Shown here one piece after another: positions 11,189-55,904 of a stretch of 64,000 nt of DNA. The DNA is from Marsupella aquatica. Taxonomy: Eukaryota; Plantae; Marchantiophyta. The stretch covers positions 15,221,037 through 15,285,036 of the forward strand of contig OZ316891.1 of the NCBI GenBank assembly GCA_973895155.1, read 5' to 3'. The notes below the pieces were generated by a model. It did no database searches. It worked only from the letters and a program-made list of their open reading frames with translations, and was not told the DNA's origin. A program made the position numbers and the translations under genes. Positions within the stretch are counted from its first letter, which is position 1. Each line of letters begins with the position of its first letter.

Positions 11189-11244
11189 TGCGTCGCTAGT
11201 ACTGCTCGAGACAAATCCCTGAATGCTTGTTCTCTCGTTGTCTT

Positions 11245-11255
11245 CTATATATATA
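11245..11255 (-). promoter_or_regulatory. Probable TATA box of FAD2
   Basis: Minus-strand TATATATATAG about 60 nt upstream of the FAD2 ATG. Confidence 0.5.
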
Positions 11256-22989: not shown

Positions 22990-23235
22990 CTCGGGGGGGT
23001 CACTTCCATGGAAGTGGCATATTATGTGCGACGAAGTATAGGGCCATTTAAATGGTTTTGGCGGAAGACTTATTAAGTTTTCTATGGAAATATAGGGTTG
23101 TTTAATTGCAAAATGCATGTACGTGTCATCACATGATTGGTGCTGTACAACTTTCTAGAAAGTGACTTAGGGGGGTCATAAATGACCCAAACCGTCGCAC
23201 GTGATGTATGACCCTTCATATAGTGACCCCCCGAG
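22990..23235. mobile_element. MITE, 246 bp, 8-bp TSD, same family as 38281-38553
   Basis: TSD TCTCGCCT on both sides. TIRs CTCGGGGGGGTCACT / AGTGACCCCCCGAG. First ~80 bp align with the 38281 copy. Confidence 0.85.
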
Positions 23236-25147: not shown

Positions 25148-26863
25148 ATGTCCACTTCTCGCATTTCTAAGGGGCATTCAACCTCAACATCACCTGCACC
25201 CACTCCGGTTAAAGCCCCTGTGAGACGATCAAAGAGAAAGGAGGTCCCCATTGCCATGAAAATTTTGAGGCCAGCTATTCCGGACAGTGAAGCTGAGAAG
25301 GTCAAATTGAGGGAGTCTTTGCTCAGGATGGGCTGTGAGTCTCTGATGGAGCTACCCTGGAGTTATCAGAGCGAAGATATGATCAGAGAGATCCGATCCA
25401 AGGAGTGTCCGACTGAGTTTAAGGATACCTCCAGAGGCCAACCTAAGCGATGGACTCAGATGATGGTTGCAGGAGCTTTTGTATTGGAAGATGAAGGAGA
25501 AGGTCCAGTGGGGAGAGCTGTCAATCTAATCCTTCCTTACTTCAAAGGAGCCATCAATAGTAAGGACGGGTTCAATATTTCTAAGTGTTTGGATCCTGAT
25601 TTGAAACGAGTCTTCAGCTTCCTGCTACCCCTGCTATATCCTGAGAAGCCACGAAGAGTTACTGTTGGAGTTGGCTCTACCATTGTTGCTGCTTACAAGG
25701 GAGAAAAAAAAGTCAACTAGGCTAAGCTTATCTTTGATTTGATAAGGAAGTTGGTACAGAACCTGTCCAATAAGAGTCCTACTCCCCTCTCCTGCTACCT
25801 GATACATCTATATAGCTTTGAAGGAGTCTTGTTCAGAGAGGAGAAGAAATTACTATTGGCCAAGTTCAACTTCATAAAGTATGGAGAGGCAGATCCAGAT
25901 ATCACCCAGGCCACCTCTGATGACAGTGAGGATGAGGAACCAGCAGAGACAAATCCTCGAAAGACCCGGTCTGCTGCCCGGAACCTCGACCCAAACTTTG
26001 CCAACCCGGCCTTCGTCGACCCGGCTGAATTTCCGGATGCACCCGGCCATGCCTCCCTAGACACCCTAGCTGATTTCCAGATCATCTCAGACACATTCCA
26101 GAAGGTAAAGAGGAAGACCACTGTGATGGAGAAGGCCATCACTGACATTTCTCAGAAGTTAGGAGTGAAACCAGGGCAGATTCTTGAAAAGATCTCCACC
26201 ATGAGTGATGCCACAGATAAGAGGAAGTTGGAGAAGGAGAATGAGTTCCTCAAGAAGAAGGTATCTGAACTCAAATAGCAGTTGGAAAGAAGTAAGAAGA
26301 AGAATGAGCTTGAGCATACTCTCCAACTCAGTATCACTCAATCTTTGGATCTGATTGAGCCTTTGACTGAGATAGCTTCTCTAGATCTTCTTAAGGCCCA
26401 AATTTATGATGAGTATTTGGCCAAGAACACCACACCCATCCCTTTCTCCAAGATTAACCATTTAGTGGTAGATGTGAGTGCTAGAGTGGATGATGCACTT
26501 ACGGGTCTCTCAAAGACCTGTGAAGCCTTAAGGGAGATGAGTGACTTGACTACAGAGGAGCTATTAGCTGATACTGAGATTCCTGCCTTTACTACTAGAT
26601 CTTTCTCTCCTAGTCCTCATGAAGGAGTCTATTCCACTGGTCCCTCATCACCCCTCAACCCTCCTGGTTTCCCCACTCCCAGTACACACTTCCACTCCCA
26701 TTCTTACACTTATTCTCATGACCCAAGTGCCCGTCAGGAGAACATGGATATTGACCCGTCCATCCCTTTTACCACTGGCCAGCAGGGAGTTTTCCTTCGA
26801 CCAGAACCCCTTGCCATAGCTAACCCTGAGGAGGTTCCTTCCCAAAAGCTAGGACCAGAATAG
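25148..26863 (+). pseudogene. Degenerate ~570-codon ORF of unknown function, probably a TE accessory gene
   Basis: Three ORF-track pieces in one frame, separated by two TAG codons. Globular N-half, acidic linker, coiled coil and Pro/Ser-rich tail; no introns. Confidence 0.65.
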
Positions 26864-31663: not shown

Positions 31664-32689
31664 TCAGAGGTCATAATCATCGAGAGAGGCCATGAGATGA
31701 GGGCCTGGAGAGTTTCGAGCACTTGCACGAGCACTGCTTCGATGACTACGAGTGGGTGGGGTCTCCCGAGGGTCAAATCCGGGACGCCCGGGGGAGTGGC
31801 TTCGAGATGGGAGTCGAGATGGCGCTCGTGATGAGATTCGAGACGCATTCCTTGATGGAATTCGAGGTGACCCACCTCTCGGAACATACCCACCTCGTCC
31901 ACCTCTCGATGGACCTCCTATGAGAGGGCCAGGGCTCCCTGCTCCGGAGATGGACAAGTTTGCTGCGCCTCGGAGTCGTTGTCCCTTCGCACCGATGGCG
32001 TGTCTGCGGCCTCTAGATCTCCGTCTTCTCTTTCGTCTCCTTCTATGGCGTCGTCGTCCCTTTCTGTGAGATCTCCCTCTCCCCTTCCTATGGCGTCGAG
32101 ATCTTCCTCTTCGTCTTCTTCTTCTTCTCCTTCGTCTACGATGCTTCCTACCTCGCTTTCTTCCCTTACTCTTCCTTCCTCTTCTTCTCCTCCTTCTTCG
32201 CCTTCTCCCTTTTCTTCTCCCTCTCCTCCTTCTGCGGCCTTTGCGACGGTGGTGTCGCCTTCGTCGTCTTCTAGCTTCAGCGATTGGCACTAGTTTGAAT
32301 CCCCTTCTGGTCTTGATGATCTTTCCTTGTTTTTGGAGCTTTTTGAGGACTGCGTTCAAACGCCTGGTGCCGGTGCTGCTTGTCAACGCGAATCCGTAAC
32401 TGTCCTTAATGTCTTGCTTTATACTGTTGATTGGGCAACCTCCCTTCTTCTTCAGCTTTGCAATGGTTGATTGCACAGCATTTGTGAGTCCTCTTGCGCT
32501 CTTTACATCAGCAGGATGCCTGGCCATTGGCCCCACGGAGCCCTCGTTGGAGGCACTGTCATCTCGACTAGGACCTCGGGACCGTGTTGAACCCATTGCA
32601 GATGATCCGTCAGATGAGTAGCCTTGAAACTCAGATTTTTCAGAATAAGCGCTTGAAATGCTATGACTCCTCTTTGGCCGAGACTTCAT
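31664..32689 (-). CDS. Histone H1-derived protamine-like sperm nuclear basic protein, paralog 1 (~341 aa from ATG MKSRPKR)
   Basis: Ser-rich N-terminus, then a linker-histone globular domain (AVQSTIAKLKKKGGCPINSIKQDIKDSYG...LNAVLKKLQKQGKIIKTRRGFKL). Followed by a ~90-aa poly-Arg/His/Gly/Lys tract, SR-type repeats and an acidic end (DDYDL). The ATG at 32689 aligns with the paralog start and is preceded by an acceptor-like TGCAG. Confidence 0.88.
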   Translation of the reverse strand: MKSRPKRSHSISSAYSEKSEFQGYSSDGSSAMGSTRSRGPSRDDSASNEGSVGPMARHPADVKSARGLTNAVQSTIAKLKKKGGCPINSIKQDIKDSYGFALTSSTGTRRLNAVLKKLQKQGKIIKTRRGFKLVPIAEARRRRRRHHRRKGRRRRRGRRKGRRRRRRRRRGRKSKGRKRGRKHRRRRRRRRRRRGRSRRHRKGRGRSHRKGRRRHRRRRKRRRRSRGRRHAIGAKGQRLRGAANLSISGAGSPGPLIGGPSRGGRGGYVPRGGSPRIPSRNASRISSRAPSRLPSRSHSPGRPGFDPRETPPTRSHRSSARASARNSPGPHLMASLDDYDL

Positions 32690-35600
32690 GATCAACTGCA
32701 CAATATCTTTACTTGCTAATACCAGACCATGACTTGTGAGATCCAATTAGAGTGATGAAGATAATTTACAGTGACTCTGGAGTAATCTAAGACGGGAGCA
32801 TAGGTCCCAAGAGACAGGACATTTACTTATATGAACTATGGAGAAGAACATTGCAGATTGTAAACGGCATTGTGGTCAATCTTGGATTTTGACAATCTCT
32901 TAACTTTAGACCACACAATCTGGAACAAAGAAACGGCCCCCCTCACGGAGACCAGGAGTTTCAGCAATGAGGAACTCGAAGGGGCACATATTGACCACTT
33001 TTGGCATGAATCAACGCACACGGATCACAAGGTCGAACCCCGCGACTGTTTGCATCAACCATCATGCCTTCTCATTGTAGCAGCCATGGATCAATCTTAC
33101 GACCTTTCACCGCAAACACCATCTACTGTAGTAGGTCGAAAGGGTGAGTGAGGATTTTTTGCATTCGAGTGAATGTTATTCGAAACAACAAATGTCTTAC
33201 ACTTGGAACGAAAAGTTGCAAGTCATGGCAAAGGATACCATCAGGGGTACCGTTGGACTACGAACTTGCTGAGCCTCGTAGGAATGGTTGGACGAGCCCC
33301 CGGACGAGCCGATTCGCCAACGGAAAATCCAGTTGACACAATTTGTAGAATGGTTGGACGAGCCGATTCGCAAACGGAAAATCAAGTACACAGATTTTGT
33401 AACGCAAGGGACGAGGTTTCTCACCAAAGTAAACGATAACTATTTTTGAGAAATGAAATCTGAAACGACGTTGCACGAGTCCAAAGGCACCAGAGTAACA
33501 ATGGACTTAGGTGTACACATGTGAGCTGAAAACTTTGCGTGTACTCGAAGTGGTAATCCACTGTTTAACTGCTCTATTGCAATAGTTGAAGGCACCCATT
33601 TCACTGGTAGGAAAAACCCAAATTCACTCTACAGACTATGGAATCCTGTCTGAGACAACCGACTCACCTATTCTTCCACATTTCTATCATCAGCCGTCTA
33701 ACTCGGTTCAGATTAGACTTGTGGTGAACGGATTCAGCTAGCTACACTGTACCTGGTTTAAAGTGGGAGTTACTTTCTTGAGCATTCACTGGAATTGTAG
33801 ACTTCTACTCCTGGGACTATGACGAATTTATTTGCGTCTTAAAAAAAAAGGCCATAATGTTGTATAAAAACATGAACACCTGCCGTGAACCAAAACCGAG
33901 GTCATCAACAAGAGAAACACTACGACAGTCGCATATTGCATTGGAAAAATAGTCAGTCAACGACCGTAAACCCTGCCGTAAACATGAAAACTGTGCATAC
34001 ACGAACACATTGCAAAGAATGAAATTTCCAATTCCACCAATCCATCAAATGAATTTTTCTCGTAAATCATGTCATACGGAGGTACCTAGCTTGTACAACG
34101 CCTACAAGCTGTTTTAATTACTTCTTGAGGCAATTCTCTTCACTAACAAGCAAATGTGTATAATGATTCCAGAAACCTCTGTAGTGTAATAACTTGTGCG
34201 TCGAGCCATGGTGTGACTAGGTCGTTTGGTAGGTAGCGTTTGTGCTTACTAATTGAAGCAACCAAATTGTAACCTCAAGTTGGGCTTAGGTGGGTTTCCC
34301 AGTGCTTCAAAAGTAGGAAATGGCATCAGCAGTTACCCATGCCGGATGCCTATCTACTGTACGACGTAACACAAGTCAGGAACAGATAAAAATAAGTATT
34401 CCTCATTTAGCAAGGAGATCAAGTTACCATACTGATCAGCAAATTCTATCTTCGGAAGAGAAGCCTGTAATCTTGACCAGCATCCCTCTACAGGACTTCA
34501 AAATCAAAATCTCAAAGATTAAACAATGACCCAAAAATGTGATAGAACTACGCAGAGACAGATTCAGATGCGTGCAGAGAGTTCGGAGAAATTTGTGGAC
34601 TTGACATGGAATCATTTACCGCCTTTTGATATGTACTGTAGAGCACAACCAAGTTTCCCATCAGTCACTACTTGTGGAGCGGGAGATTCTATGTTATTGG
34701 CAACAAGAAATTGGAAATTGGACATTTAGAGTGTAGTAGGGTTTCTGTTGTTGGCTTCCCATGATACGTGTCCGCACGAAACTAGTCACGTACTGGAGTC
34801 ATTTCGTGTTTGTCTTCACCTCAGACAGTACCTGCGCTACTTAATAACACGTCCTGACTATTGACATCGCTGTTCCGCATTAACTAAGACCATATGACAA
34901 TGGTGGTACATCCAAGGCAACTGCTGCTCTTGCCTCCTATTCATCTTCGTTTGTTTCGATGCTGGAGCATCTCACCGGGATATTTTCAGATTGTCTGAGT
35001 TATGTGCTAGCATGTGCTAGCAGATTACTTCATATATGATTCAGTTACCTCCAATCCCGAAGGAAGCATTGCATATAGGAACATTGGAGAATGACTAGTA
35101 GAAATCACATTCACGTTTCAATTGGTTAAATGAATCGATTCAAATTATTGGCTACGTCTTTGTATGAGATCGCCACTATTCCTCATTGAGCACAGGAGTG
35201 AGATTACCAAGTTTGGTTTCAACAGCGATCTGATTCTGTTTGCTTGGCGAGGCCAATGGTGAGCCGAAGTGGTTGCAAGATGTCTTGAATAATAGTGATC
35301 AACGTGATCTAAAGATTGAGCATCTCGTTGTCGCTAGCAGGGCTCCAATACGCGACACTCAAACAGTGAGGGAAAATTATGATTTGGACCCAGGCCACTC
35401 TTCCCCGAACATGGCGCTGTATTTGAGTAGTGGACCAGCGTGCGCTTTATTCTAATAATGCATACCCTGGGCGTTGTTCGACTTTGACTCTTTGTTTGGG
35501 AATGGTTTTACTTGTGTTCTGTTTGTAAATTTACATTGTGTTCTAGTATTGACATTTGAGTTCTTGCCGCCTAAATCTAAAGGAGTCTGGCTCACTATAG

Positions 35601-36364: not shown

Positions 36365-36518
36365 ACTCGAACACAACATCGAACTCAAACACAACGCCCT
36401 AGCACTGTGTTAAAGTGGCGTTGTGTTTGCAAAAAACCATATTTATTAGTGAAGAGATCACTTTTTTCCCATTTTCAAACACAACACCCGGGCGTTGGTT
36501 GTGTTTGGGGGAAGACGG
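36365..36518. mobile_element. Right arm of the same Tc1/mariner-type MITE family
   Basis: AACACAACGCCC subrepeats ending GGGGGAAGACGG|TA. Confidence 0.7.
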
Positions 36519-36577
36519 TAGGGTTGCTTGAGAAAGTATATGGTCAACTGTACTTCTGGACTTATGCCGGGAGACAT

Positions 36578-36711
36578 TGTCGTGCGCATACATATCGCTA
36601 CACAACATACATCGCTTGTCACATACATCCAAACATAGTCACACTGCCATATCACAAACACAAGAGAATGGAATACAAGTGGAACTCATGTCCACACATG
36701 TCCAAAACCCA
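36578..36711 (-). repeat. Repeat A, terminal copy (134 bp)
   Basis: Direct repeat of 37045-37178; forms the element's 3' terminus next to the TSD. Confidence 0.93.
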
Positions 36712-36714
36712 CAA

Positions 36715-37042
36715 TAATCTCCATACAATCGGCACAACGATCCCGATCAACAATACCCCATCGATCCCGCACCGATCCGATCACACACGTATGTCAAGCC
36801 AACGCACCTTGCACTACTCAAGGAATCCACGTTACACAAGCGGAGCTCACAGCCACCATAGCCACTCAAGCTCCTCTCTCTCCAAGGCTCAACATTGAAA
36901 GATGACCTTTCAATGCCTCACAAGTGAGAAGTACCCTCTCACACAAACCTGACGGAACCTTATCGGCTCCAATAGCACTCATACCAAACGTACATACTCT
37001 AATAGCACGATATACTACTACACTACTCAGAATGGTGTGACA
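36715..37042 (-). repeat. Repeat B, 3' copy (328 bp)
   Basis: Direct repeat of 46611-46938. Confidence 0.93.
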
Positions 37043-37044
37043 GC

Positions 37045-37178
37045 TGTCGTGCGCATACATATCGCTACACAACATATATCGCTTGTCACATACATCCAAA
37101 CATAGTCACACTGTCACATCACAAACACAAGAGAATGGAATACAAGTGGAACTCATGTCCACACATGTCCAAAACCCA
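37045..37178 (-). repeat. Repeat A, inner copy (134 bp), directly after the PPT
   Basis: Matches 36578-36711 with about 3 substitutions. Confidence 0.93.
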
Positions 37179-37355
37179 TAATCGCCCCCCTAGTTGGGAG
37201 TAAGGTCCCCTAACTCTAGCTAGCCATGAGTTCTACAAGGTTGATATACACCTTTTTAGGTGTGAAGATCAGGAGGCCGGGTGCAAGTAAGCCCCATCGA
37301 TCACCTACCTGCAATCCATATCTGCCAAGAGAACACAAATGATAACTAGTCGGCT

Positions 37356-38900
37356 TCACCGACACTGAGGACACAACCATGATCCACTAGGAATCACCTG
37401 CAATGGTGGTGTCAAACATGACATGTGCCATCCTCTAGAACACTTATCACAAATAGTAGAACATAGTAGCTGCTCCTTGAGCAGATCCACACAACATACA
37501 TTTCAAGCCAGCACGAACATGTGCCAAGCTTGGATCTACTGTACCATCAATGTTGGGAAGGTGACATGGTGCACAGTTGCGCACATGATCCTTCCAAACC
37601 ATACCATCGCGTCCCTCCAACATCAGGACACCAGAAGGCAACACTTCACGCACACGTAAGATTGTCCGGCCTGCGGTCACATCAAGTGTTGTGGGTGCTG
37701 TCTGCTGCAAATAAACATAATCACCAGGATGAAATCGTCGAATGCTTGCACGGTAACCTCCTCCACGAATAGTGGCATACCTCAAAGTATCACGATGTTG
37801 GGCAATGGCAAGGTTGTCAAAAGCCATGGGCATCACTCTCTGAAATACCCGTGCTCTCTCTGAACACACCTTGACCCAAACATCAGGATCATCCAAGTTC
37901 ACAACTGGTGCAGCATCACGACGAATAGCTGCTGGCAAATCTGGCTCTCTACCATAGAGCAAAAAATAAGGTGAGAAGGATGCAAGTGATGCTTGCCGAC
38001 TGAAACGGTAGCCCATAGCTAACCAAGGTAGCTGGAGATCCCAATCTCCCAGATGACCAACCTGCAAGCCATACTTGCGCAATCCTCTCTTCACAGTTTG
38101 CACAACTCTCTCAGCTAATCCATCTGCCTTAGGATGATCACGAGAGGTAGTACGATGATCAATCAAAGCTTGTTCACACAAACTCTCAAACTCTCCACGG
38201 AACTCAGTTCCCTGATCAGTCAACACCTCAGCTGGTGCTCCAAAATGACTGAGTACACGATCCAAAAATGTAGCAGCAACCTCGAGGGGTTCACTTCCAC
38301 AAATGTTGACATCATGTGCGAACAAAGTAAGGGGCATTTTATTCATTTTAGGGAAGTACTTAGAAGTAGCGAGGAAGTAAGTAAGGGGGTAACAATTCAA
38401 AAAGTGCCACTTGTCATCACATGATTCATTGCTTGCCACATGTCAATAAATGATTGATGGGTTTTTTGAGCCTCCTATTCCTTTTTGAGAGAGTGATTAA
38501 ATAGGGGCGTTTGCACATGGTATACAATAATTTCATAAAGTGAACCCCCCAAGGCAGCAACTCCTCCACTGGCTTTATCTGGCAACGTCACTAGCTCAAT
38601 CCACTTGGAGAAGTGCTCCACCATGACCAAAATATACCGATTATGACGTTGGGTAAGAGGTAATGGACCAGCAAAATCCAAACTCCAACGATATCCCAAA
38701 CCCATGATCGACAACGGGTGCAACTGGGGAGTGGGAGCATTAAATGATGCTCTCACTCTATCATATACCACACACTTAGCTATCAATTGTTGGACATGAG
38801 TGTGCATACCACGCCACCAATACTGTCTGCAGCAAGCTGTAAGTGCACTTTACACCAAAGTGACCCAACTCCTCGTGCGCATGTCGCACCAAATGTACTC
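37356..38900 (-). pseudogene. DDE integrase with C-terminal PHD finger (MITE-interrupted, frameshifted)
   Basis: HEELGHFG zinc-binding region, WSLDFAGP, VLTDQGTEF, GLAERVVQTVK. Then CMLC and, after a frameshift, ICDKCSRGWHMSCLTPPL...WLCPQCR*. Confidence 0.9.
38281..38553. mobile_element. MITE, 273 bp, 8-bp TSD, inserted in the integrase
   Basis: TSD GCAGCAAC (38273-38280, 38554-38561). TIRs CTCGAGGGGTTCACT / AGTGAACCCCCCAAG. Removing it rejoins GVAA-TFLDRV. Confidence 0.88.
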
Positions 38901-39279
38901 TCTGTGATGGTTTTGGGACCACCAACACTCTGTCATCATGCAGTACTGTCAAAAGATGGTTTCCCTCCCATCAAAACCTCTTGGCTCTCTGTAGAACCCT
39001 GTCACGTTCCTTGGCATCAACACTACCAACAATAGAACCACTACGCAGATATTCCAACACTCTCACATCATTGTGAATATCTTGCTGTCCAGTAGTTACC
39101 TCACTAACATCCACATCTGAAGACTCATCATCCACTCCATCCAATGAGGTAGAGTCCACAGATCCACTGTATGCTGACACCCAACAAAGAAAGGCAGATG
39201 CATGCCATCCTGGCACCATCTCCTTATCTGACTCATCATGCCATCTGGCTCCAGTCTCATCTTGCTGACTGGTACATGG

Positions 39280-39644
39280 ATTGCGGCTTAATCCATCTGC
39301 ATCCAAGTTCACTTTTCCAGGCCTATGCACCACCTGGAAATCATACTCCCTGTAACAACAATGTCCATCGTGCAAGCTTTCCTATAAGCTTGTAAGACTC
39401 CATTAACCACTTAAGAGGCTGATGATCAGTGATCAAGGTGAAGGGGTTACCAAACAAGTAGCAACGAAAGTGTGCAATAGCCCACACTGCTGCCAAACAC
39501 TCTCCCTCATAAGAGCTATACTTAGCCTCTGCTGAATTGTTTGATCTACTGGCATAAGCCACAACAAACTCATTCCCCTCATCATCCTTCTGAGCCAGCA
39601 CTGCTCCAAGTCCTACTCCACTCCAATCAGTGTGTAGCTGAAAT
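39280..39644 (-). pseudogene. RNase H of the gypsy-DNMT element (interrupted upstream by a MITE; frameshifted near its end)
   Basis: FQLHTDWS..GLGAVL, VAYASR, YSSYEGECLAAVWA, ITDHQPLKWL, YDFQVVHRPGKVN.DADGLSR. Confidence 0.93.
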
Positions 39645-40282
39645 GGCCTCATTCACAATTGGGTGTACCTCGCAGGAACCACTTTTAGGACTCAAAAACA
39701 TACTTTTTTAGTGAAAAATGACTTTCGTAACATGGAAAAAGGTTCATCATGATTTTATCTGAAGACATTTAAGTCTATTTTTTTCACAATACTATTTTAC
39801 ATGGTGTAACCTACCTCACCATGTAGATACATCAAGTTTTCAACTATTTTAAGGGATCCTGTTATTGATGGCCCTAAATAAGCCAAAATTACTGATTATT
39901 TTTGTCCTGTACATAAAGGTTTAGTGTGTGTCACTATTTAAGTTTTGAAATATAAGATTATGCTATTAGTATGCATGCTTTGGTAAAATTTTATATTCTA
40001 AAATGCATTTTTTAGAGTCCTTTTGAGTCCTGAAATGATGTGACCCGTTGCGTGACAAGTCCTTTTATCAATCTTTGAAGGACATATAAGGAAAGCTTCA
40101 AAGTCTCAAATGCTAGATAGTTTAATGAATGTTACCAACCTATAGGATGTTTATTAAGTATAGTACATCAAATTTTCTATATCATCTCATTACACCCTAA
40201 AAATGATATCCTAAAGCATAATAAACTATGGTCACTTTTGAGTGTGACGTTCCTTTTGGGTCCTCCAATTGTGAATGAGGCC
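39645..40282. mobile_element. Non-autonomous DNA transposon, 638 bp, 4-bp TSD (Sola1-like?)
   Basis: Perfect 18-bp TIR GGCCTCATTCACAATTGG and TSD AAAT. Excision restores SGRPF-QLHTDW of the host RNase H. Confidence 0.88.
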
Positions 40283-40345
40283 AAATGGTCTGCCTGAAAT
40301 GGGTCTTCTCAAAAGAGGGGATGATGCCAACCTTTGCTTCAACTC

Positions 40346-41362
40346 CTAAAAGGCATGCTCCTGGTCATCACCCCAAATCCATTCCTGATCCAACTTAGTG
40401 AGTATGGTCAAAGGTTTAGCAAGCTGGCTAAATCCTTTAACATACCTCCTGTAGTAGCTCGCCAATCCCAAGAATGCACGAACTCTACTCACATCAGTAG
40501 GACAAGGAATCTGTGTAATGGCCTCCACTTTAGTCTGTTGTACACCCAATCCCCTTGGGTATATAGTGTGGCCCAAATACTCAATCTGGTCTTGGAAGAA
40601 CTTACACTTGCTAGGATGGAGCTTCAACCCATGTGCTCTCAATCTCTCCAACACAGTCTGCAAGTGTTGCTGATGTTCTTCCACAGTAGAAGAATAGACC
40701 AAAATATCATCAATATAACATCTGACAAAATCCAAACCTGCAAGGATTCGATCCATGACTCTCTGGAACTCAGCTGGTGCATTCTTCAACCCAAATGGTA
40801 AGAATAACCACTGATACAAACAATTTTTGCCATAAGAATCAATCCCCCAGAATGTTGTCTTGGACCTGTCAGCATGCCTAATTGGAAGCTGATGGTACCC
40901 TGCCCTCAGATCCAATAAACTGAAAACCTTTGCATGCCCCACAACATCAAAGATCTCCTCAAGTGTGGGCATGGCATATCTGTCAGATTTTGTCTGGCGA
41001 TTAATGGGTCTGTAATCACCACACATGTGCCTATCTGTGTAATTGCCATGCACATCCTTCTTGGCTGGCATCACTGTGGCAGATGCATACTCCCCATATG
41101 AAATCTCCACCAATCCAGCCTCCAACAAATCTTGAGTTCTGCTTTGAATCAGAGCTCTCTCCATGTCACTGTAATGGTATGGCCTACGAAAGATTGGCGC
41201 ATCACTAGCCAATTCAATCTGAATACCAGGACCCTTTAATGTCCCCAAATCTTTCATACTAAATGCAAAACAATTCCAGTAACTCTTCAGGAATCGATGC
41301 ATGCGACGTCTCTCCTCCCTTGTCAACTTAGGGCCAAGCTGTGGTTCCCAACTCTCCACCAA
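40346..41362 (-). pseudogene. Ty3/gypsy reverse transcriptase
   Basis: CGDYRPINRQT, FSLLDLRAGYHQ, LPFGLKNAPAEFQRVMD, YIDDILVYS, KCKF, YLGH. Confidence 0.97.
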
Positions 41363-41559
41363 ATCCCTAATATCTCTTTGTAGGGTAGAAGAGATATCCG
41401 ATGATTGCTATTTAGCAGTAGATTGAGCAGTCCCTTCCTGCTCAACAATCTGTCCAGCCTTGGCCAATCCTGCCATAGGTCCATGGATTGTCTGCTCGCC
41501 CTCAGCTGTGGTCAGTACTGTCTCAGTGGACCGCAAGCTCACCAAGGGACAATCAGTAA

Positions 41560-42560
41560 TTCCAGCAGAGCGCATTTGCAACTGTTCAGCTACTCCCAAG
41601 CTGATAATCCAAGTCAAACAATTCAGATCCATTGCTTGACCAAGAACCTGGCGCCGCAAACCCTCTGACACAGAGGCAACTGCAGTGGTGCCAGTCAAAA
41701 ATCCCATAGCACGCTCTCTCTCATCAGCAATAGGCTCCACTAACTGCTGGAGAGCCGTGTCCCACACAAGTCCAGGGCCACCTCCTCTGAATGCATATGA
41801 AGCAGAGTGGCTTACAAGAGTGGGTAATGCACAACGTGGGCGCCCAACTGCATTGACCACTGCCAATGGAGGTCTATCAGGTTGGGTCACACCCTGTGCA
41901 CGATGCCCTGGATCCAAAATATCATCCACCACTAAGGCTGGTGAGCGTGGAATGCTGTCAAATGCGCGCTTTAGCACCTCACATGGGATCAAATTGATCC
42001 ACCACAAGCGTGGACGATGTGCACGAGAACCCACACGTGCAGCATCCAATAACACAACAGGTCCAATCCAAGACCTCACCTGGTGAACACTGGCAACAAT
42101 CCGACTATGATCATCACCTAACAATGGCACATTCTCCAAAATGTATGCTGGAGACTGTGTTTGATGTAGCTGGAGATGACGCAGCACCCATAACATCTCC
42201 CAAAATAGTGCAGAGCGTGGATCATGAAGTCCATGCCCAACGCCAGCTCTAGATTGGCCCTAACATGGCCAACCAGCAATCACCAAATCAATGGGGCCAA
42301 CACGATGCAGATGATCCGCCCCCAGCAATGAAATATCAGCAGGTAGTGCATGCTGATAACCACGAGCAGCATCCACTAGCAGCAATTGTGGATATCTATC
42401 CACCAACATAGCCACATGCCGCAATGAGACCCTCCGTGCTGTCTCATCTGTCTCCACATACAAATAACGACGCACAAGAATTCTTGCCTGAAGAACAACA
42501 GCCAATCTAGTGCTAATCCCACCAAAAAGATCCAACAAACAAATACCCTCCGCTGGATAT
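41560..42560 (-). pseudogene. DNMT3-like C5 cytosine DNA methyltransferase domain within pol (one nonsense codon after catalytic PC)
   Basis: Motif I LLDLFGGIST, II YVETD, IV IDLVIAGWPC*G, VI YILENV, VIII RAHRPRLWW, IX ERERAMGF, X LGQAMD, all in linear order and one frame. Confidence 0.9.
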
Positions 42561-42697
42561 TGCCAAGCAATAGGAGTGGTATCCAATGGTGAAAGAGTCA
42601 CAGGTCCATCTGCAAGAGATTGCTCTGCTCCTAACTGTGGTGTAAAAGCATGACGCCATGCATCATGTACCAATCGTACTGTTGCCTGTGGCAAGGC

Positions 42698-43528
42698 CTA
42701 TGCAGTGCCCCACACTGGTGGCACAACACTACCAACAGGTAATCCTTGCATGATGTGCTCCTCATGAGACTCCTCCAATGGTGGAACATCGGCTGCACGC
42801 GCATTACCCTCAATCAAATCATCAGGTCCAGCAATTACACCACTGAATGCTGCCAAAGACAATGGTGTGGATTTAGCGCCTCCCACAGGTCCACTAAATC
42901 TCACTGGCAATTTGCTCAATCGAGCATCTCCTGACTGCCAATCAGGTCTATATGACACTAATTCCTCCCAAAAATCAAGAATAAATCCCATGGGGTAGAG
43001 CACTGTACATCCCACCAACACATCATATGACTCTGCCTTAGTCAGAATAGCTCGCGCCTGTATCTGTGAGCTATCTGTGGTATGACCTTCCTGAATCCTC
43101 AAATCAAGAGGTCTCCTGGTAATGTGTTGTGTAGGTGTAGGTCCCCCCAATGAAGTCTGAATGGGAAAGGGACAATTCTCCAAATCCTCTGGACGCAATC
43201 CCAATCCACGTATGACAGACTTTCCCAACATCAAGGGCTGAGCACCAGTATCCAGTAACACCCTCTCTGGCTGGTATACTGCTCCAGAAGGCCCAACTAA
43301 TCGGAAGATACCACTCCGATTATCCAATGATACAACACTAGGTTTAAACCTAGTCCTCTCAAATGCAGGGCGTGCTGGTAAATCCACCAACCTCGCTCCT
43401 GCTGCATGCCATGTCTCACTAGTAGCAGTAGGTGGCATGGTCTTCACTGCATCAACACTGCAAGTTGCTTCTGCATGGGAAGCAACCACTGGAGTGTCCT
43501 CACAGAGTGTAGCTGCCAATCTAAACAC
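42698..43528 (-). pseudogene. Retropepsin-like aspartic protease region of pol
   Basis: VLLDTGA catalytic motif and YDVLVG C-terminal motif. In frame with the downstream DNMT, separated only by a TAG. Confidence 0.85.
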
Positions 43529-43641
43529 TTATGCAGGACCAACTCCCAAGTTCAGCATGTCTGTCGCTGAAAATAATGGGGCGCGTACCATGGCAGTAGC
43601 CGCCCCCAGCAAGGTACCTATCATCCCTACTGCATCACTAC

Positions 43642-45381
43642 CTATTCTGCCAACTTACCCACATCAGGGTTTGTCCGAACCGGGTTCATAGAGGCAGTCT
43701 GAACTGTCTCTGACAATGTAAAAGACTGAGGAAGCTTTGTCTGTCGACGTGCATCTCCCCTCTGTGGATCTAACTCCACTATTGCTCCTCGGGGCTCAAG
43801 AGCTTTGGCTGCCCCACGTGTCAAAGCTGCTGATGCATCAATATGTGTAGTGCCACACATGAATCCCATGGTGGCAAGGTCTCCATCAGCTCCATAAGAT
43901 GTGGAAGGTCCATAGGATATTGATGCCCCATCACCAGAAGTAGGTCTCACCTGAGAACTAGCCATGGCAGCTAGCTGTTGCTCCAATTGAGCAATCTTAG
44001 CATCCTTTGGATCTATGGTTACAGCAGGGGCAGCGTCACCTCCCTGTCTCCCTGCATGTGGCATGCCACGACCACGTCCACCGCCTCTACCTCCTCCTCC
44101 TCTTCCCTGATCATGTGTACGGGATCCTCCTCTCCGTAACTCAGGATGGAGTGAGAAACACCTATCCTTGGTGTGTCTAGGAGCTCCACAGTGATCACAC
44201 TGTCGCTGATCAGGCGCTGATGCTCCCCCTGATCCTCTATGATCTGGGCAATATCTCTGTGCATGATCCCCACCACAGGTCCAACATCCTGACTGCTGTC
44301 CAGCATAAGAGGGCACAGATCTCTGGCTGGTAGACTCTCGTGCAGTAGGCTTCTCCCTCTGGCTCTTCCGTGCAGTAGGCTGTGGTGTGGATGTGGATGC
44401 AGCCTTTGGTGCTTCCTTGGCAAATCCGGAAGTCACCACCTTCTCATTCACCATATTGAGCTCAATGTGCTCAGAAAGTGTAAAAACAACTGCTAATGTG
44501 GGATCTGCATCCCTAAGCAGAGTGACATCTCTCACTCTGCGTCGCAATTCTCTGTCCAGAATTGCATACCAAAACTGGACTGCTTGAGCCTCTGTCACTC
44601 CCTTGGTGACAGTGATCAATCTGCGCATACAAGTGTATGCCTCACGTAGACTCTCTCCAGTCTTGCGCTGGAACTCTTGAAGACCCTTCAACTTATCAGT
44701 TCTTACACCCTGATAGTTCTGCTTTAGTACCTCAAAGAATTCCACCACAAGGTTAAATGCTAGCGCAACTCCAATTCCTGTCACAATCACACCGGCAGGA
44801 GTAGCGGTGGATGCTGCTGGAGTGCTGCTGGTGGATGGTGTGCCACTCTGGCTAGTGCTGCTAGAAGAAGCAGCAACTATGGCAATGGGTTGGGCAGCCG
44901 CACTAGTGCCATAGGTGATGGTCACGTAATTAGGCGACCAATGCTGCCTCCATGCCTCAATCTCAACCAAATGAGCCTTCCGAAACTCATGGTAGTCATC
45001 CATGGGTGGCCCCTCCAAATGCTGAAATAATCCCTTCCATGCCATGAAAGGGGTAAACAATGTGGCGTTACGCAATGTCTGCATATCGCACCACGTATCA
45101 AACTCCTGGATGAAGTCATCCAGATCAATCGTGCCAACTGCACCAGAGTATCGTCGTGGGCCCTTTGTAGCCCCGTACATCTCGTCCATATCCCACAACA
45201 AAAGTGCAACCACCTGATGATAAGGAGAATTGGTCACTGAGTCCTCATCAAAATCACTGTCTGAAGCTGCACTGCTAACTGCTACCAATGCTGCTGGCCG
45301 AAACTGCGCCCCACTCCGAGTGAAACCGGTCCGTCGTCCATCGGGTAACCCAGCAGCACCAGAAAAATCCGTGGTGACCAA
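43642..45381 (-). pseudogene. Retrotransposon Gag (capsid-like region plus two zinc knuckles)
   Basis: FQRKTGESLREAY gag motif; CWTCGGDHAQRYC and CDHCGAPRHTKDRC knuckles; RG-rich segment. Offset from the pol frame near 43640. Confidence 0.85.
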
Positions 45382-46610
45382 CCCTAACCTAATCTATGTG
45401 CTAACCCTAAGGGCAGTCTGTCCCTATCAGCACCACAAGCACTCACCATGGTGTGTTGGACATCACTCCAACATCACCAGGAGAAAAATACACAGCACAC
45501 TAGAATGTCCGGTTGCAAACCCGGATCACTCCTATGGAATCAAGTGCCCATACCGAACCAACATGGCGCATAAACAAGAAACAAGTGTGGAGAGGATCCA
45601 ATCAACAAGAATAGTCAAACACTAACTCTCCACACCAAGAGTGATCACACATTGATCAAACAAATATTTATAATGTTCAATGAAAGGCCTTCATAATAGG
45701 CTTCATGATGTCCCAATGTTATAGATGAGAAACCATGCAGAATTGGTTCAATCTGTGTATTTAGATGAACTCAGAACTATCAAAAACCTCTAAAGAGCCT
45801 CTGATTTGGCCCGAAACAAGGCTCTAAGCAAACCGGAAAGTGTATAAAGCCCCATGGCGTTTGAATCTAAACAACAAGTTGTGAAAACTTGTGTGTACAC
45901 AAGGTGGGATGAGAACTTGCCAGTTAAGCGCTTGCGGGTGGGAATAGTCCCGGGATGGGTGACCTCCTCGCGCTCGACCTCGTGCTTCCCCTCGTGTTCA
46001 TGACCTGGAATAGCCCCAGGATGGGTGACCTCGACCTCGCGCTTGCTTGCGCTCGCGATGGGTGACTTCACGCTCGCGGTTGGGAGCACTTTCGGGATGG
46101 GTGACCTCACGCGTCACCTTATGCGCGCACAATTGTGTGTGTACACAAAACAGAAGTCGTCGGGCTCAGAAATGGCAACATTTGCCACTCGAAAGTAGCA
46201 ATTTCCTTCACAAAAACGGCAACGTCGATGGCTCTCGACCTCTGCAAACCTGTTGCGCATGGTTCTGGGACATTTCGTGAGCGTCCCTTGACAATAAAAC
46301 ACTGCGAGCACTCAAAATTCCAACAGATTTGTCCACAAAACAGCAATGCGATACAAGCAGCAACCTTCGGCCATCTCTTTCCAGATCTAGACTCCGACTC
46401 AATCCAGATCCAACAACGTTAAGCTTGGCCAGAACCAGATCAAATATCAACAGAGTACTCAAACAATAGAACCAACGATCCAAGAAACATGAATCCGCGT
46501 CAAACACAAATCCAATTGATTCGAGCTACCACGAACCGTCACCGTCAACAACAAACTCAGACTGAGCTTTTGTCCGCACAACAGAGTTTGAAGCTCATGA
46601 TCTTTCAATG

Positions 46611-46938
46611 TAATCTCCATACAATCGGCATAACGATCCCGGTCAACAATACCCCATCGATCCCGCACCGATCCGATCACACACGTATGTCAAGCCAACG
46701 CACCTTGCACTACTCAAGGAATCCACATTACACAAGCGGAGCTCACAGCCACCATAGCCACTCAAGCTCCTCTCTCTCCAAGGCTCAACATTGAAAGATG
46801 ACCTTTCAATGCCTCACAAGTGAGAAGTACCCTCTCACACAAACTTGATGGACCCTTATCGGCTCCAATAGCACTCATACCAAACGTACATACTCTAATA
46901 GCACGATATACTACTACACTACTCATAATGGTGTGACA
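46611..46938 (-). repeat. Repeat B, 5' copy (328 bp) of the gypsy-DNMT element
   Basis: Matches 36715-37042 with about 7 substitutions by eye. Confidence 0.93.
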
Positions 46939-47039
46939 ACATAGAGGAGACCATATATCTCGCATCTAACTAGTGTCATAAAGTGTAATCAAAAGTTGTG
47001 AATCTAGCTACTCTCTAGGGTGAAGACTCTAGACCATAA

Positions 47040-47457
47040 TGTTAGGTATTGCTCTTAGTCTTGTGACTTATGAGCTAACCACAATTAGGTTAACTCAGGT
47101 TAGGACTTAGCTAAGGTTAGCGGTAGTGCTGTTGTGTATATTGCCAGGGCTGGTGCCAGCCCCTGGTGGGACTAAGGCTCATTATTATGGAGCTAGTTGA
47201 GAGATAGGGAGAGCTAGTGCTGTGGATGCTTGGTATGGTCGGTCGGCCTAGAGTGTAGTAAAACTCTTGTGTGTTCCCGTGGACGTAGCCTCATGACGAG
47301 GTGACCACGTATCTCTCTATGTCGACTCTTGTGTGTTCCCGTGGACGTAGCCTCATGACGAGGTGACCATGTATCTCTCTGTGTCGACTCTTGTGCGGGC
47401 TCTTGTGCGTTGGATGGTTCATGGGCTTGCGGTTGCGATTGTCGTCTATGCTCAACA
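47040..47457 (+). mobile_element. Solo LTR related to the copia element (opposite orientation)
   Basis: TGTTAG...CTCAACA aligns with the reverse complement of 55354-55697. 5-bp TSD CATAA. Internal ~62-bp tandem duplication at ~47264-47390. Confidence 0.92.
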
Positions 47458-50151: not shown

Positions 50152-51171
50152 TCAGTCGTCATAATCATCATCATCTGGGGCAGCCGATTCCGACACTTTG
50201 GCCCTTTTGCTCGCTCGCTGGTACGCCGGACGAGCGCGCGCAGGCGATGGATTTCGTGAAGCAAGCCGCGATGCAGCTCGCGATGGCAGCCGAGACGCAG
50301 CTCGCGATGGCAGCCGTGATGCCGACCGAGATGCGAGCCTGGACGCGGTCGTCGATGGCGGAGAACTCCCCTCAGGCGCAGAACCTCCACCTCCGCCCTT
50401 GACCGGACCTCCGGGCAGAGGTCGCTCATTCCCCTTGAAGGACAACTTCGCCACTCCTCTCCGAAGCTTTGCAGTTTTGCCGGGCGCATCTGCGTGCTTG
50501 CGGCCATGTCGTCTTCTTCTCCTCCTCCTCCTCCTCCTTCCATGGCCTTTGCGGCCCTTCCGTCGTCCATGTCTTCTTGTCCTTCGACGACGACGACGAC
50601 GACGATGCTTCCTTCCTTTCGCTCTTCTGAATTTCCTGCGTCTTTTACCCCTTCCTCTTCTTCTCCTCCTCCTCCTCCTCTTCCTGCCTTTATGGCGGTG
50701 ATGCCTTCTCCGCCTCCTCAGCTCCGATGCCGGCACGAGTTTGTATCCTTTGGTAGTCTTCACCAATTTCCCGTCTTTCTGAAGGTTTTTTAGGACGGTG
50801 TTGAGGCGCCTAGTGTTGTGAGCGCCAGTTAGGGTGTATCCATGGCTGTCCTTAAGGTCTTGCTTTATGCTTTTTACCGGGCACCCGCCCTTTTTCTTCA
50901 GCTTGGCAATTGTGGATTGAACGAGTCGTGTGAGTCCAGACGTGGTCTTGGCCATGCTTGCGATGCTCATTTTGGATGCGGAGCCACTTGGCTGGTATGA
51001 ACCATTATCGTCATTGCTGTCGTATCCCGTCGCATCGGTGGCATAGCTTGCTCTCGAGTCCTGCGTGGATGTCATGGATGCACCCGATGCACCTGACTGG
51101 GACGAGTAGCCGTCGGACTTTTCTGACGAAATGCTGGAAGCACTAGGGCTCCTGTGACGTCGGGACTTCAT
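50152..51171 (-). CDS. Histone H1-derived protamine-like sperm nuclear basic protein, paralog 2 (~339 aa from ATG MKSRRHR)
   Basis: Same architecture as paralog 1. H1 globular domain LVQSTIAKLKKKGGCPVKSIKQDLKDSHG...LNTVLKNLQKDGKLVKTTKGYKL, poly-Arg tract, repeated ASRL(A/P)SR, acidic tail DDDDYDD. Confidence 0.88.
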   Translation of the reverse strand: MKSRRHRSPSASSISSEKSDGYSSQSGASGASMTSTQDSRASYATDATGYDSNDDNGSYQPSGSASKMSIASMAKTTSGLTRLVQSTIAKLKKKGGCPVKSIKQDLKDSHGYTLTGAHNTRRLNTVLKNLQKDGKLVKTTKGYKLVPASELRRRRRHHRHKGRKRRRRRRRRGRGKRRRKFRRAKGRKHRRRRRRRRTRRHGRRKGRKGHGRRRRRRRRRRHGRKHADAPGKTAKLRRGVAKLSFKGNERPLPGGPVKGGGGGSAPEGSSPPSTTASRLASRSASRLPSRAASRLPSRAASRLASRNPSPARARPAYQRASKRAKVSESAAPDDDDYDD

Positions 51172-54100
51172 GGCTACAGGGCCACTTTTGACTTGACTGG
51201 GTCTCAGAATCGAGTGACGACGGACAAGGTTCCAGAGCTCAGGCTGCTCAGGATGTCCAGGAGTCAAAATATTAGATGTACGATTTGGATTCTGACTATT
51301 CTGTCTTTCGAGAATTATTCCGGTTAGACCAATCGATATACAGGGTCATCTACATACCAGCCGAGGGAATTAAATTGAACGAAACTTGGAGATGGAGGTT
51401 CTAGGAATCCTTTTGAAGAAAGAGAGCCTGCTCCATGAAGAAAATGTCGACACCTTAGACAAACGTCGAGAAAGACATTGAATCATACCCTCAGCAAAGG
51501 CCATGGAGAAGTGCAAAGTTTAGACCTACAGAGGCCCACCGAATTGCCATGGAGAAAAATCTGCCACTGGACCAACGACAGGACAAATGTGGACAAAGAC
51601 ATCGAGTGATCTCTTCATGAAAGGGCAGTTCATGGAGAGGTGCAAACTTTGCAGCTCTAGTGCCACCGACGAGCACACGGATCAACCTCTACACTCATGC
51701 GGCAACATCACACCTTTTCAAACTATCATCCATCGTGCCTTTCCAGATCTGAAAGACATTGAATCGCCAGGTATGGTACTTTTTGGCCAATGAAATCCAA
51801 ATTGTCCCGTAGGATTGCAACCTTGGTAACTTCTGCAACATGTTGACAGTGTAGAGAGAATGTTCCTCAAATCAGGAAGGAAAAAACACAAGTCGCCATG
51901 TCAATGTCAACTTCTGCAACGTGATGACAGTGAGAGAGAATGTGCCTCAAATCAGGAAGCTAGAAGCCATGTTAATGAAATCTTTCAGGAACATGTTTAA
52001 TGTTCTTATCCTGAATGACTGATTGTCTGAATTACCAATCCAGTGTTTAACATCGAATCGGTTTCACACTGACCCCGCCTCCTCCACAAACTTTATGTCC
52101 TTTTCCTTGTTTTATTTTTCCATCGACAACAGAAAGAAGAAGATCCACTACCTGAAATGATATCTTTGGAGCTTGCACACAATACGGCCCTTTGTTTCTT
52201 TTTCCCTGGGAAACCCAAAGAACATCTGAGATCATCTTTGGAGCATGCAACACCGAAGCCCCCTTTTTTTTCCCTTGAAAACCGAAAGAAAATCAGCCCA
52301 TAGGAGATGATCAGCTCTGGATCACGCACCATTGTAGGGTAGCCCGTGAGGGTGGACATACTCGGGGATCAACTGTAGGGTAGCACATGATAGGGAGTCG
52401 ATCTAACAAAGGACCCCACCAGGAGGGAGAGAGGGTTACATTAGGGTTCCAGAGTGCCCAACAAGGGGCCAAGGAGACAACCAGTTCTCCCCACTGACAC
52501 CTCACCCAACTTGCAGGCATATACACCCTCCACTGACTTCCTTTACATCCTGATGTGTAAAGCTAGCCTTGTGGAGTGGGGTTGGTCACACTCCTCATAT
52601 TGTGGTCCTTGCTTTCCGTGTCTCCTCAATTGGATGTTGTAAGGGTTTGGACATCCTAGCATGTAAAGCTTCCCCCCTGCAATGGGGGGGTTGCCTCCCA
52701 CTCCAACTCATGTTGTACTCACATAAGACTAAGGACCCCAGTACAAATGATGCCTGGCTATGTCAGCTCTTGCAACTTCCTCATGTGAACAGAATACGAG
52801 TTCCCTTCTGTAGACAACATAGGACTAATTGGAATGATGCCTGGCTTTGTGGAGGTCTTGCAACTTCCTCATGTGAATAGAATCTGGGTTCCCTTCTATA
52901 GGCAAGCCACCTAAATTGTTCAGAATGAGTATTTCTCAATTGTTATTATCCAAGTTTTGGTTTGTGCTATGAAAGCCATTCTTTGTGTTTGTGAAATTGG
53001 ATGTAAACCACTAACAAGTTATTACTTCTTATTTTTTGCTTTTTATCCTTGTTTTGAGTAACCCCTTCACATTAAACTTATTCCCAGTCTGAGATTGACA
53101 CAAAAGGGAACACACAATGCCCCCATAACCCTTAGCCCCTAAACCCTAAACCCCCCAAACTACCCAATATTTACTAACGTGTCCCCCCAAACAAAATGAT
53201 TTATCAATCCGCGCCCCATTTGTATTTGGGTAAGTATTAACTCGTATCTGGGTTCCAGTTGCCATGTGGCAAGTTGCTACTAGTTAACTCACCGCGACCC
53301 CTTTGGCCTCTAAACCCTAACAAATGCTTAACAAACGTGAAAACTAATTATGGGCAAATTAAAGCTTAACTCAGCCTAAATTTACAACCTCAAATTCTTT
53401 GTCCCTCCTTTCCCACCCGGACCTCCTACCCATTTCCCCTCTCCCAAATCCAACTCAATTGTTTCTCTTAATTACCCTTCAATCTTTTTCATCTGATTTG
53501 TTTGACGAGGGTAATAGAACATTTGTGGGAAATTCTTGTTCTTCAAATTTGTTTTTAGCACGTAGGTCCTCAAAGGTAGGCATCAACATAAAAAGTTCAG
53601 CCCAAACAGACTGAGACGACAAAAGGCTAATTTGTTTTATGGATCATACAATGTTGACATTAATCAGTACCACAAAAACACAAAAGAACAAGCGACTAAC
53701 TTAACGTTCTATCGGTTTAAAGTGCACACTGTCATTGTTAATTACCAACATCTGATCTCATCTGTCAATCAACATGGACCTTTTCTTGAGACAATTGGGG
53801 CATGGTCCTCTTTGCTAGTCACTGATCAATTGAATATGTAGATCAATCAGATCTAACTTATGGTTTATAAGTTAATGAATTAAATTGAAGAAAATAGTTA
53901 TTATAATTCAAAAAGCAAATAAATGGTTATACTTGGTTACTATTTTGTACCGCTATTTGTAGGTGGGCATAGTAATTGTCATTTTCCCCAAATTTTAGTG
54001 TCTAATCATTTTTTCTGGCATCAAGGCAAACACCAATTGTGGTATTGTTTGTTACTGCAAGTACCATTGTTCATGTTTGTGGTGGAAATTGATGATGTGG

Positions 54101-55353: not shown

Positions 55354-55697
55354 TGTTGAGCATAGACGACATTCGCAACGGCAAGCCCATGAACCATCCA
55401 ACGCACAATAGTTGACACAGAGAGATACGTGGTTCACCTCCACATGAGGCTACGTCCACGGGAACACACAAGAGCTTTACTGCACTCTAGGCCGACCGGC
55501 CATACTAAGCATCCACAGCACAAGCTCTCCCTATCTCTCAACTAGCTCGGTAACAATGAGCCTAAGTTCCACCAGGGTCTAGCATCAGCCCTGGCTATAT
55601 GCACAATAGCACTACCGCTAACATTAGCTAAGTCCTAACCCGAGTTAGACTAACTGTGGTTAGCTCATGAGTCACAAGACTAGAGCAATATCTAACA
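55354..55697 (-). repeat. Copia 3' LTR
   Basis: TGTTGAG...CTAACA, direct repeat of 61626-61969. Confidence 0.95.
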
Positions 55698-55904
55698 AAC
55701 TCCCCCTTGACTCTTGTCTTGGGGACTGGACTAAATGCTATCATATGGAATCCTCAGCGGGAAGTTCTTGACAATCACCAAACCAGGTCTCCCCCTAAAA
55801 ACCACAAGGGTTAACTAAGGGTTAACTAGAACTAAGCCGTAGCCTAATAGGAATGAGTAATCCATATACAAATAGTCACACATTGCTAAATAACTCTACT
55901 TGCA

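Follow-up and report, generated by a model that had tools for sequence, protein, structure and literature searches.

A 64,000-nt stretch of the liverwort Marsupella aquatica (contig OZ316891.1, positions 15,221,037 to 15,285,036; referred to as the window, to which all coordinates refer) contains a Ty3/gypsy retrotransposon on the minus strand. Inserted copies of this element and its relatives start and stop at a conserved palindrome inside the long terminal repeat (LTR), most likely because their own DDE integrase cuts there and not at the cDNA ends. In the textbook account of retroviruses and LTR elements, the integrase inserts the very ends that reverse transcription has produced; across many families of the present lineage, this coupling is lost. 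From the sequence comparisons described below, we consider it highly probable that the element's integrase uses an internal attachment (att) site. We also lean toward the wider reading that an old green-plant gypsy lineage moved its att site from the cDNA ends into the LTR, with junction cleavage by a retroviral-family integrase becoming the normal, and only, way of entry.

Based on sequence comparison within the window, the element spans 36574..46942 and reads target site duplication (TSD)-B-internal-polypurine tract (PPT)-A-GC-B-A-TSD on the minus strand, with the following features:

36574..36577, no strand: TSD ACAT on the 3' side of the element, read directly from the sequence; the empty-site contig described below has one copy
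36578..36715, minus: outer A, the U3-proximal part of the LTR, ending in ..CACGACA, the right integration end; 97.1% identical to inner A
36710..36722, minus: U5/U3 fusion, with both reverse-transcription ends bluntly joined at 36716/36715; the equivalent join varies among relatives
36716..37042, minus: inner B, comprising the end of U3, R, and U5; 97.9% identical to outer B
37039..37048, no strand: internal att palindrome GACA-GC-TGTC (CAYGACA-GC-TGTCAYG across the family), which 31 inner copies from relatives fit ungapped
37045..37182, minus: inner A, the start of U3, adjoining the PPT; 97.1% identical to outer A
37183..37191, minus: PPT, AGGGGGGCG; a G-run lies before A in all families
46600..46611, minus: self-priming primer-binding site (PBS), adjoining outer B; 12-nt complement of 46788-46799
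46612..46938, minus: outer B, beginning with TGTC, the left integration end; 97.9% identical to inner B
46788..46799, minus: self-primer, the 12 nt with which the transcript is predicted to begin, forming the 3' arm of a hairpin
46939..46942, no strand: TSD ACAT on the 5' side of the element, read directly from the sequence

The order B-internal-PPT-A-GC-B-A, put forward in an original prediction made from the letters of the window, is present, with the borders refined to 138 bp for A and 327 bp for B. The outer ends (in element sense, TGTC at 46938 and GACA at 36578) and the 4-bp TSD ACAT flanking them were also located as predicted, as was the inner palindrome: GACAGCTGTC at 37039-37048 is the single GACAnnTGTC in the window. 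Of the 11 differences found between the two A copies and between the two B copies, eight are C/T or G/A transitions, as methylation decay would be expected to produce. The only complete reverse-transcription LTR consists of inner A, GC, and inner B (37182-36716). At 36715/36716, U5 (..GGAGATT) is joined exactly and bluntly to U3 (ATTGTGGG..), with borders set by the PBS and PPT. The original prediction described this fusion as imprecise and placed it at 36711-36715; the window join is exact, and imprecision appears only across copies.

The reverse-transcription ends were assigned from the priming signals. The 12 nt directly after outer B complement a stretch approximately 140 nt into B, and a G-run precedes A in every family. 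The positions of the PBS (46600-46611) and PPT (37183-37191) thus define the cDNA LTR as A-GC-B, in agreement with the LTR originally proposed from the PPT and priming site. In 11 of the 14 B copies tested, a self-priming complement (11-22 nt, no more than one mismatch) lies where it would be expected; L003, L004, and L036 scored poorly. The complementarity points to a self-priming signal of the Tf1 type, as priming in Tf1 is generally understood. We also observed that the self-primer is the 3' arm of a hairpin, the 5' arm of which lies just upstream of the predicted start (46776-46801 in the window, and in the B repeats of L007, L029, L078, and L015). Masking of the primer copy in the 3' LTR is a possible role for this hairpin, which family F2 lacks. 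A TATA-like motif lies approximately 30 nt upstream of the predicted start in most families.

To relate this layout to other copies, we scanned metagenome contigs with an alignment of the integrase-PHD region and analyzed the best 80 of at least 505 loci. Before counting 3' ends, we left out 13 of the 80 loci without an A/B match, 9 duplicates of the same insertion, and 9 loci that were truncated, interrupted, or at a contig end (L015, L024, L027, L028, L029, L032, L037, L058, and L076). The remaining distinct 3' ends comprise 28 with PPT-A-GC-B-A and 21 in which PPT-A is followed by flank; the latter include L009 and L026, two loci with GC or GCTG beyond the end that could represent truncated A-B-A copies. 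In all 13 visible distinct 5' ends, B comes first, without a preceding A, and a whole LTR is present in none of them; L052 has GC ahead of TGTC, but without A. Among the 29 loci with B2 and sequence beyond it, none ends at U5 in flanking DNA, and L015 enters its own PBS. Thus, a canonical pair of terminal LTRs is lacking, though PBS and PPT exist. An exact 4-bp TSD was found in 7 of 11 complete copies and in 0 of 110 mismatched pairings (L036, the outer A of which is cut short, was excluded from this count). Sixteen loci fall into seven groups sharing the same flank, and the form agrees within each group, which argues against assembly collapse. The ordinary A+B LTR pairs that would have spoken against the original prediction were absent from the 13 visible 5' ends, and the layout, the TGTC/GACA ends, and the 4-bp TSDs are common to related elements. 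As judged from these assembled copies, the layout is confirmed to be family-wide and not one-off.

Among the element's own kin, the borders are also sharp in the contigs of individual runs. In runs X1 to X4, 33, 21, 30, and 35 contigs, respectively, with unrelated flanks end exactly at 36578 (flank agreement, 0.37-0.38). The summed contig depth, which we used as a measure of border sharpness only and not of copy number, climbs about a thousandfold at 36578 and, in X1, goes from approximately 45,000 to 48.5 across 46938. Runs X5 and X12 had too few contigs at the element ends for testing other organisms. As a separate observation, a B start (46938) is joined via 17 letters to the middle of a different B (46780) in runs X1 and X6, possibly representing one copy inserted into the LTR of another.

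For the insertion in the window, a 397-nt contig of run X1 (depth 48.5) matches the left flank via its positions 248-367 and the right flank via 151-251. Because both placements have the same length, depth, and strand, we read them as one record; they overlap by exactly 4 letters, giving an empty site with a single ACAT. The original prediction had named the empty site as a check, and this contig provides it in a diverged form: it differs from the window by 11 substitutions and 4 gap letters in 124 letters and by 5 in 101 and represents either a paralogue or a divergent allele. Run X6, which comes from another study, likewise has a contig starting at 46939, and its differences are equal in number. 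The left junction was matched without differences in X1, X3, and X4, yet only 28-29 letters into the element, short of the 31 letters used as our rule; one of these runs may be the source sample. No contig bridging the right junction was present among the matches listed.

The palindrome and the U5/U3 join behave differently across copies. The form CAYGACA-GC-TGTCAYG fits 31 of 31 inner copies ungapped, 27 of them deviating at no more than two positions of the 10-nt core; of the 47 changes from this form, 43 are C>T or G>A. It is present in five families: the layout was seen across three, and the same palindrome in two more. Between these families, the bodies of A and B were no better than shuffles in 18 of 20 comparisons, and 2 of 20 beat the shuffled controls. 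The retention of the att site while the LTR bodies mostly do not align argues that it is under selection and inherited. Conversely, 15 copies in one family have eight types of U5/U3 join, and these are dispersed over a star-like tree; the supported sisters L038 and L043 differ in join type. The joins in L008 and L043 retain PPT-side bases, and that in L006 has a 19-nt insert partly repeating nearby B. Such variability is the pattern expected if the true cDNA ends, placed here by PBS and PPT, are joined anew in each insertion. The GC spacer is missing from all inserted ends. Taken as a record of past insertions, these copies show that the integration ends are uncoupled from the predicted cDNA ends. 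From the same patterns, we infer that the palindrome at 37039-37048 would be the integrase cut site and the sole template for both ends. Two further ideas were rejected. The cDNA ends are not ordinary TGT..ACA att ends: other families begin U3 with AGTTG, ATACA, or GTTTG, their joins are variable, and none of the copies ends at these positions. The idea that the Dnmt3-like domain marks which att site is cut was dropped because only the left half-site keeps a CG.

These data are consistent with the following pathway. The transcript would begin approximately 140 nt into outer B and end in inner B, and its first 12 nt would prime reverse transcription. Given the PBS and PPT positions, this would yield an ordinary linear cDNA, (A-GC-B)-internal-(A-GC-B). 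The integrase would nick both strands after CA in GACA^GC-TGTC, leaving two recessed CA-3'OH ends, each with a 5' overhang of 2 nt, as on retroviral ends after processing. The cut ends would be inserted with a 4-bp stagger, matching the observed ends and TSD. The free U5 and U3 cDNA ends would be closed by end-joining, before or after strand transfer, matching the observed variable joins. The net product would be equivalent to a 2-LTR circle opened in its 5' LTR. Finally, the 5'-LTR site would be picked because it is the first to become double stranded after the second strand transfer, a choice that would explain the missing mirror form B-A-B-internal-A. For the order of the last two steps, i.e., the timing of end-joining and the choice of the 5'-LTR site, we see the chances as even. 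The B-internal-A form could arise from one-LTR circles, double cuts, or later A-A recombination.

Several points weigh against this proposal. Cleavage by the integrase, and the circle itself, are steps that we infer. The mirror form was found in no copy, compared to eight B-internal-A-B-A copies with visible 5' ends (seven related loci and the window), and the chance of no mirrors in eight under equal cutting is approximately 0.004. In a closed 2-LTR circle, the two att sites would be identical over at least 100 bp on each side, and mirrors should therefore be as common; their absence makes a plain symmetric circle insufficient and the choice of the 5'-LTR site an added assumption. Moreover, the relatives are short-read metagenome assemblies of old copies, and 4 of the 11 complete copies are without an exact TSD (L056 agrees in three of four letters, while L043, L052, and L078 fail). 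The ungapped fit of the att form scored C>T and G>A as half-matches, which favors the result. In three runs, 6-14 contigs per run have loose ends at 36720 (agreement, 0.52-0.58), which we tentatively read as diverged B ends of other subfamilies, and no pile of loose ends was seen at the B start (46938) among the matches listed. Of the originally predicted circle cut at an LTR-internal att site, the internal ends, conserved palindrome, and variable join hold up; a symmetric circle alone does not, given the 0 mirrors in 13 5' ends and the common B-internal-A form.

The closest alternative, which has the core claim in common with our proposal, is that a symmetric 2-LTR circle is cut at either att site at random and that mirrors later collapse to B-internal-A through recombination between the adjacent 300-bp B repeats. 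The proportion of A-only 3' ends (21 of 49; 43%) is near the expected half, the B repeats are two to three times longer than the A repeats, the two forms are mixed on trees, and four of six complete A-only copies have exact TSDs. This account nevertheless demands that nearly all mirrors have collapsed while old A-B-A copies persist at 80-95% repeat identity, with 0 mirrors among the 13 5' ends, and terminal branch lengths give no significantly greater age for the A-only copies (p 0.16 and 0.53, a weak test). We consider it unlikely.

Still less probable is that another enzyme acts in trans, either a tyrosine recombinase of the PAT/Ngaro/TOC kind or a cut-and-paste transposase with TGT ends. 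In the order of its repeats, the element exactly matches the A1-B1-A2-B2 reported for PAT elements (PMC4157794), and its ends are short inverted repeats, as such an origin would have it. Yet no recombinase match was obtained in 12 + 8 window open reading frames (ORFs) or in 10 ORFs of L015, recombination would not account for 4-bp TSDs at unrelated targets or for the missing GC spacer, and the TG..CA ends are those used by the integrase family that the element encodes, which is conserved at 49-82% identity across loci. We give the least credence, close to none, to a one-off rearrangement, nested insertion, or misassembly of a normal element with an LTR of B+A or A+GC+B. B and A together form a 465-bp unit with TG..CA ends, the cDNA ends are readable as TGT..ACA, and the right junction lacks a bridging contig among the matches listed. 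Against this stand the same layout in 28 distinct related insertions of three families and the palindrome in two further families, the absence of an end at U5 in flank from all 29 loci with B2 and beyond, the agreement in form of 16 same-flank loci in seven groups, and an empty site that shows a clean single insertion. For the family, a one-off rearrangement is refuted.

The integration signals belong to an element whose proteins are of the gypsy type and whose structure is not that of a canonical LTR element. The window copy is dead, with stops, frameshifts, and two inverted-repeat insertions, and its coding regions are as follows:

37360..39100 (approximate), minus: DDE integrase carrying a PHD finger at its C-terminus, disrupted by frameshifts, stops, and an insertion; matches of the broken pieces to Pfam rve and Integrase_H2C2 fall below cut-off, PHD motif in the translation
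38286..38548, no strand: miniature inverted-repeat transposable element (MITE)-like insertion inside the integrase, with 11-bp inverted ends, from sequence
39341..39652, minus: RNase H (RH); Pfam RT_RNaseH, 4.9e-36
39644..40283, no strand: MITE-like insertion between reverse transcriptase (RT) and RNase H, with 19-bp inverted ends, from sequence
40346..41407, minus: RT, with in-frame TAG-CAA-TCA upstream (possible read-through stop); Pfam RVT_1, 1.7e-33
41411..42697, minus: Dnmt3-like C5 cytosine methyltransferase with one internal stop; best PDB match DNMT3A, E 5.7e-09
42698..43528, minus: aspartic protease region; Pfam Asp_protease_2, E 0.0017, below cut-off
43642..45393, minus: gag-like ORF with two CCHC-like knuckles; no Pfam match, same place in related loci

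The Ty3/gypsy domain order gag-protease-RT-RH-integrase is present, with the Dnmt3-like domain within the polyprotein; all 26 related loci with a visible protease and RT contain the methyltransferase. The TG..CA ends and the 4-bp TSD likewise agree with Ty3/gypsy elements, in which TSDs are 4-6 bp. An integrase profile search matched Ty3 Gag-Pol, foamy-virus integrase, and PHD fingers, and Ty3 was the best integrase match in PDB. The D, D, and E motifs are seen in the broken window integrase and in the unbroken relative L015, the integrase of which scores 51.9 bits for rve (cut-off, 32.6) and 2.6e-10 for PHD, with no chromodomain match in Pfam. No Pfam match to a tyrosine recombinase was found in 20 of 61 window ORFs (at least 60 aa) or in 10 of 19 L015 ORFs. 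These scans of the window and L015 bear out the originally proposed gypsy DDE integrase without a recognizable recombinase. L015 (9317 nt) has two unbroken ORFs (1369 and 1047 aa), and its A-GT-B leads directly into its own PBS and leader; it represents either a one-LTR circle or young copies that collapsed during assembly. In the window (41399-41410, minus), L015 (5083-5091), L020, L022, and L031, gag-protease-methyltransferase is separated from RT-RH-integrase by an in-frame TAG-CAR-YYA stop, a motif that we take to be a read-through context. Of 40 loci, only 4 have the motif close to the start of RT; TAG-CAA-CC occurs in family F1, and no such stop was seen in family F2. With the stop downstream of the methyltransferase, this enzyme would be made at Gag-like levels.

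Named protein relatives among the matches listed are from Marchantia, Calypogeia, and Sphagnum, and a scan of viral contigs found no relative; the family is likely from mosses and liverworts. No RNA data set was among the matches listed, a negative that does not bear on expression. Several Marchantia gene models (P0142, P0144, P0150, P0162, and P0242-P0244), annotated as PHD-type or DNA cytosine methyltransferase proteins, are 67-84% identical to pieces of the element and are probably copies of it. The elements seem abundant, and their Dnmt3-like enzyme and PHD reader are annotated as host genes in Marchantia.

The closest precedent is KnitGypsy-Dnmt3 of Klebsormidium nitens, for which the legend of Fig. 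4c in de Mendoza et al. 2018 (PMC5890265) gives a DIRS repeat structure with Gypsy domains. Both elements combine Gypsy domains, a Dnmt3-like methyltransferase in pol, and DIRS-type A-coding-B-A-B repeats, and the lineage described here extends to land plants. The likeness is one of layout and domains, with no Klebsormidium-named protein among the matches listed. The accessible portions of that paper contain no att palindrome, TSD, self-priming, PHD, or mechanism ("target site" gives 0 matches, and "TSD" gives 0 in three supplement files). The original prediction that this mode had not been described for a gypsy lineage is thus true in part: the layout was printed in the 2018 legend, while no account of an att site or mechanism was found in the literature searched, for which the consulted sources were available in part. 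That literature, with Repbase Reports, theses, and most subscription journals outside the search, yielded only the 2018 legend as a prior account. Searches for split or permuted repeats in gypsy elements gave only tyrosine-recombinase papers and reviews, and the available part of a 2026 preprint on methyltransferase-bearing retrotransposons (10.64898/2026.05.21.726589) contains no att site, TSD, or mechanism. The layout therefore has a one-line precedent, and the mechanism is unexplained in the literature searched.

Parts of the proposed pathway have counterparts in other systems. PAT-type elements carry split direct repeats A1-B1-A2-B2 (PMC4157794), and DIRS1-like recombination leaves no TSD (PMC3266345). 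Like PAT, TOC, Kangaroo, Ngaro, and Viper, the present element has split direct repeats and an integration junction inside the element; unlike them, it has a DDE integrase, no recombinase that we found, a 4-bp TSD, TG..CA ends, and a cytosine rather than an adenine methyltransferase. The Tf1/sushi group and plant Tcn1 chromoviruses use tRNA-independent self-priming (PMC6317226). The PBS described here is self-priming like theirs, by sequence complementarity, whereas a PHD finger replaces the chromodomain, no terminal LTR pair exists, and the ends lie inside the LTR. HIV-1 integrase cleaves the palindromic 2-LTR junction (PMC1905944), and circles can feed HIV-1 integration (PMC4372172). The present element resembles HIV-1 and foamy-virus circle junctions in combining a retroviral-family integrase with a CA..TG palindrome that would be cut internally. 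Foamy-virus integrase reportedly likewise cleaves the 2-LTR circle junction. In those viruses, the palindrome is made anew from cDNA ends and serves a side route, whereas here it is inherited in the LTR, distinct from the join of cDNA ends, and apparently offers the only route. Among DNA transposons, the spacers at circle junctions of insertion sequences (IS) are 1-4 bp. IS3/IS30-type DDE enzymes integrate from a circle junction (PMC3299598). The copy-out/paste-in IS3, IS30, IS21, and IS256 families share with the present element a DDE enzyme and abutted ends at the junction; in these DNA transposons, the transposase builds the junction in each cycle, whereas here reverse transcription would copy a ready-made one.

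The element would represent a natural, genome-scale case of an integrase acting on an internal palindrome, so far a side activity of HIV-1 and foamy-virus integrases, and indicates that a split-repeat layout can arise without a tyrosine recombinase. The old question of whether circles are true integration precursors becomes testable with a 16-bp substrate; a short duplex holding CACGACAGCTGTCATG would serve as the att-type substrate for the family integrase. If junction cleavage at the inherited att site is indeed the way in, one-LTR and end-joined circles, which lead nowhere for other LTR elements and retroviruses, become productive substrates, and accurate primer removal ceases to matter. 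The element would then rank as a retroelement that naturally integrates by cutting a junction in the manner of IS3, and all annotation tools based on LTR pairs would overlook it. Lacking a terminal LTR pair, such elements would be missed by pair-based finders; a plant reference survey demanded such a pair (PMC6317226).

The window contains several other features. Two paralogous genes with linker-histone domains and long arginine runs, which are protamine-like, flank the element (31664-32746 and 50152-51345, minus). An intronless FAD2-like fatty-acid desaturase lies at 10043-11335 (minus; Pfam, 8.8e-29). Six long ORFs in a run (18814-26863, plus), coiled-coil and acidic with no Pfam match, are probably transposon accessory genes. 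A copia element with ordinary 346-bp LTRs (97.7%) lies at 55354-61971 (minus), and a solo-like LTR related to it at 47040-47457 is 100 bp from the gypsy element. A MITE-like inverted-repeat family occurs three times (36367-36522, 12335-12504, and 7641-7809), and the gypsy element is inserted approximately 55 bp from one of these copies.

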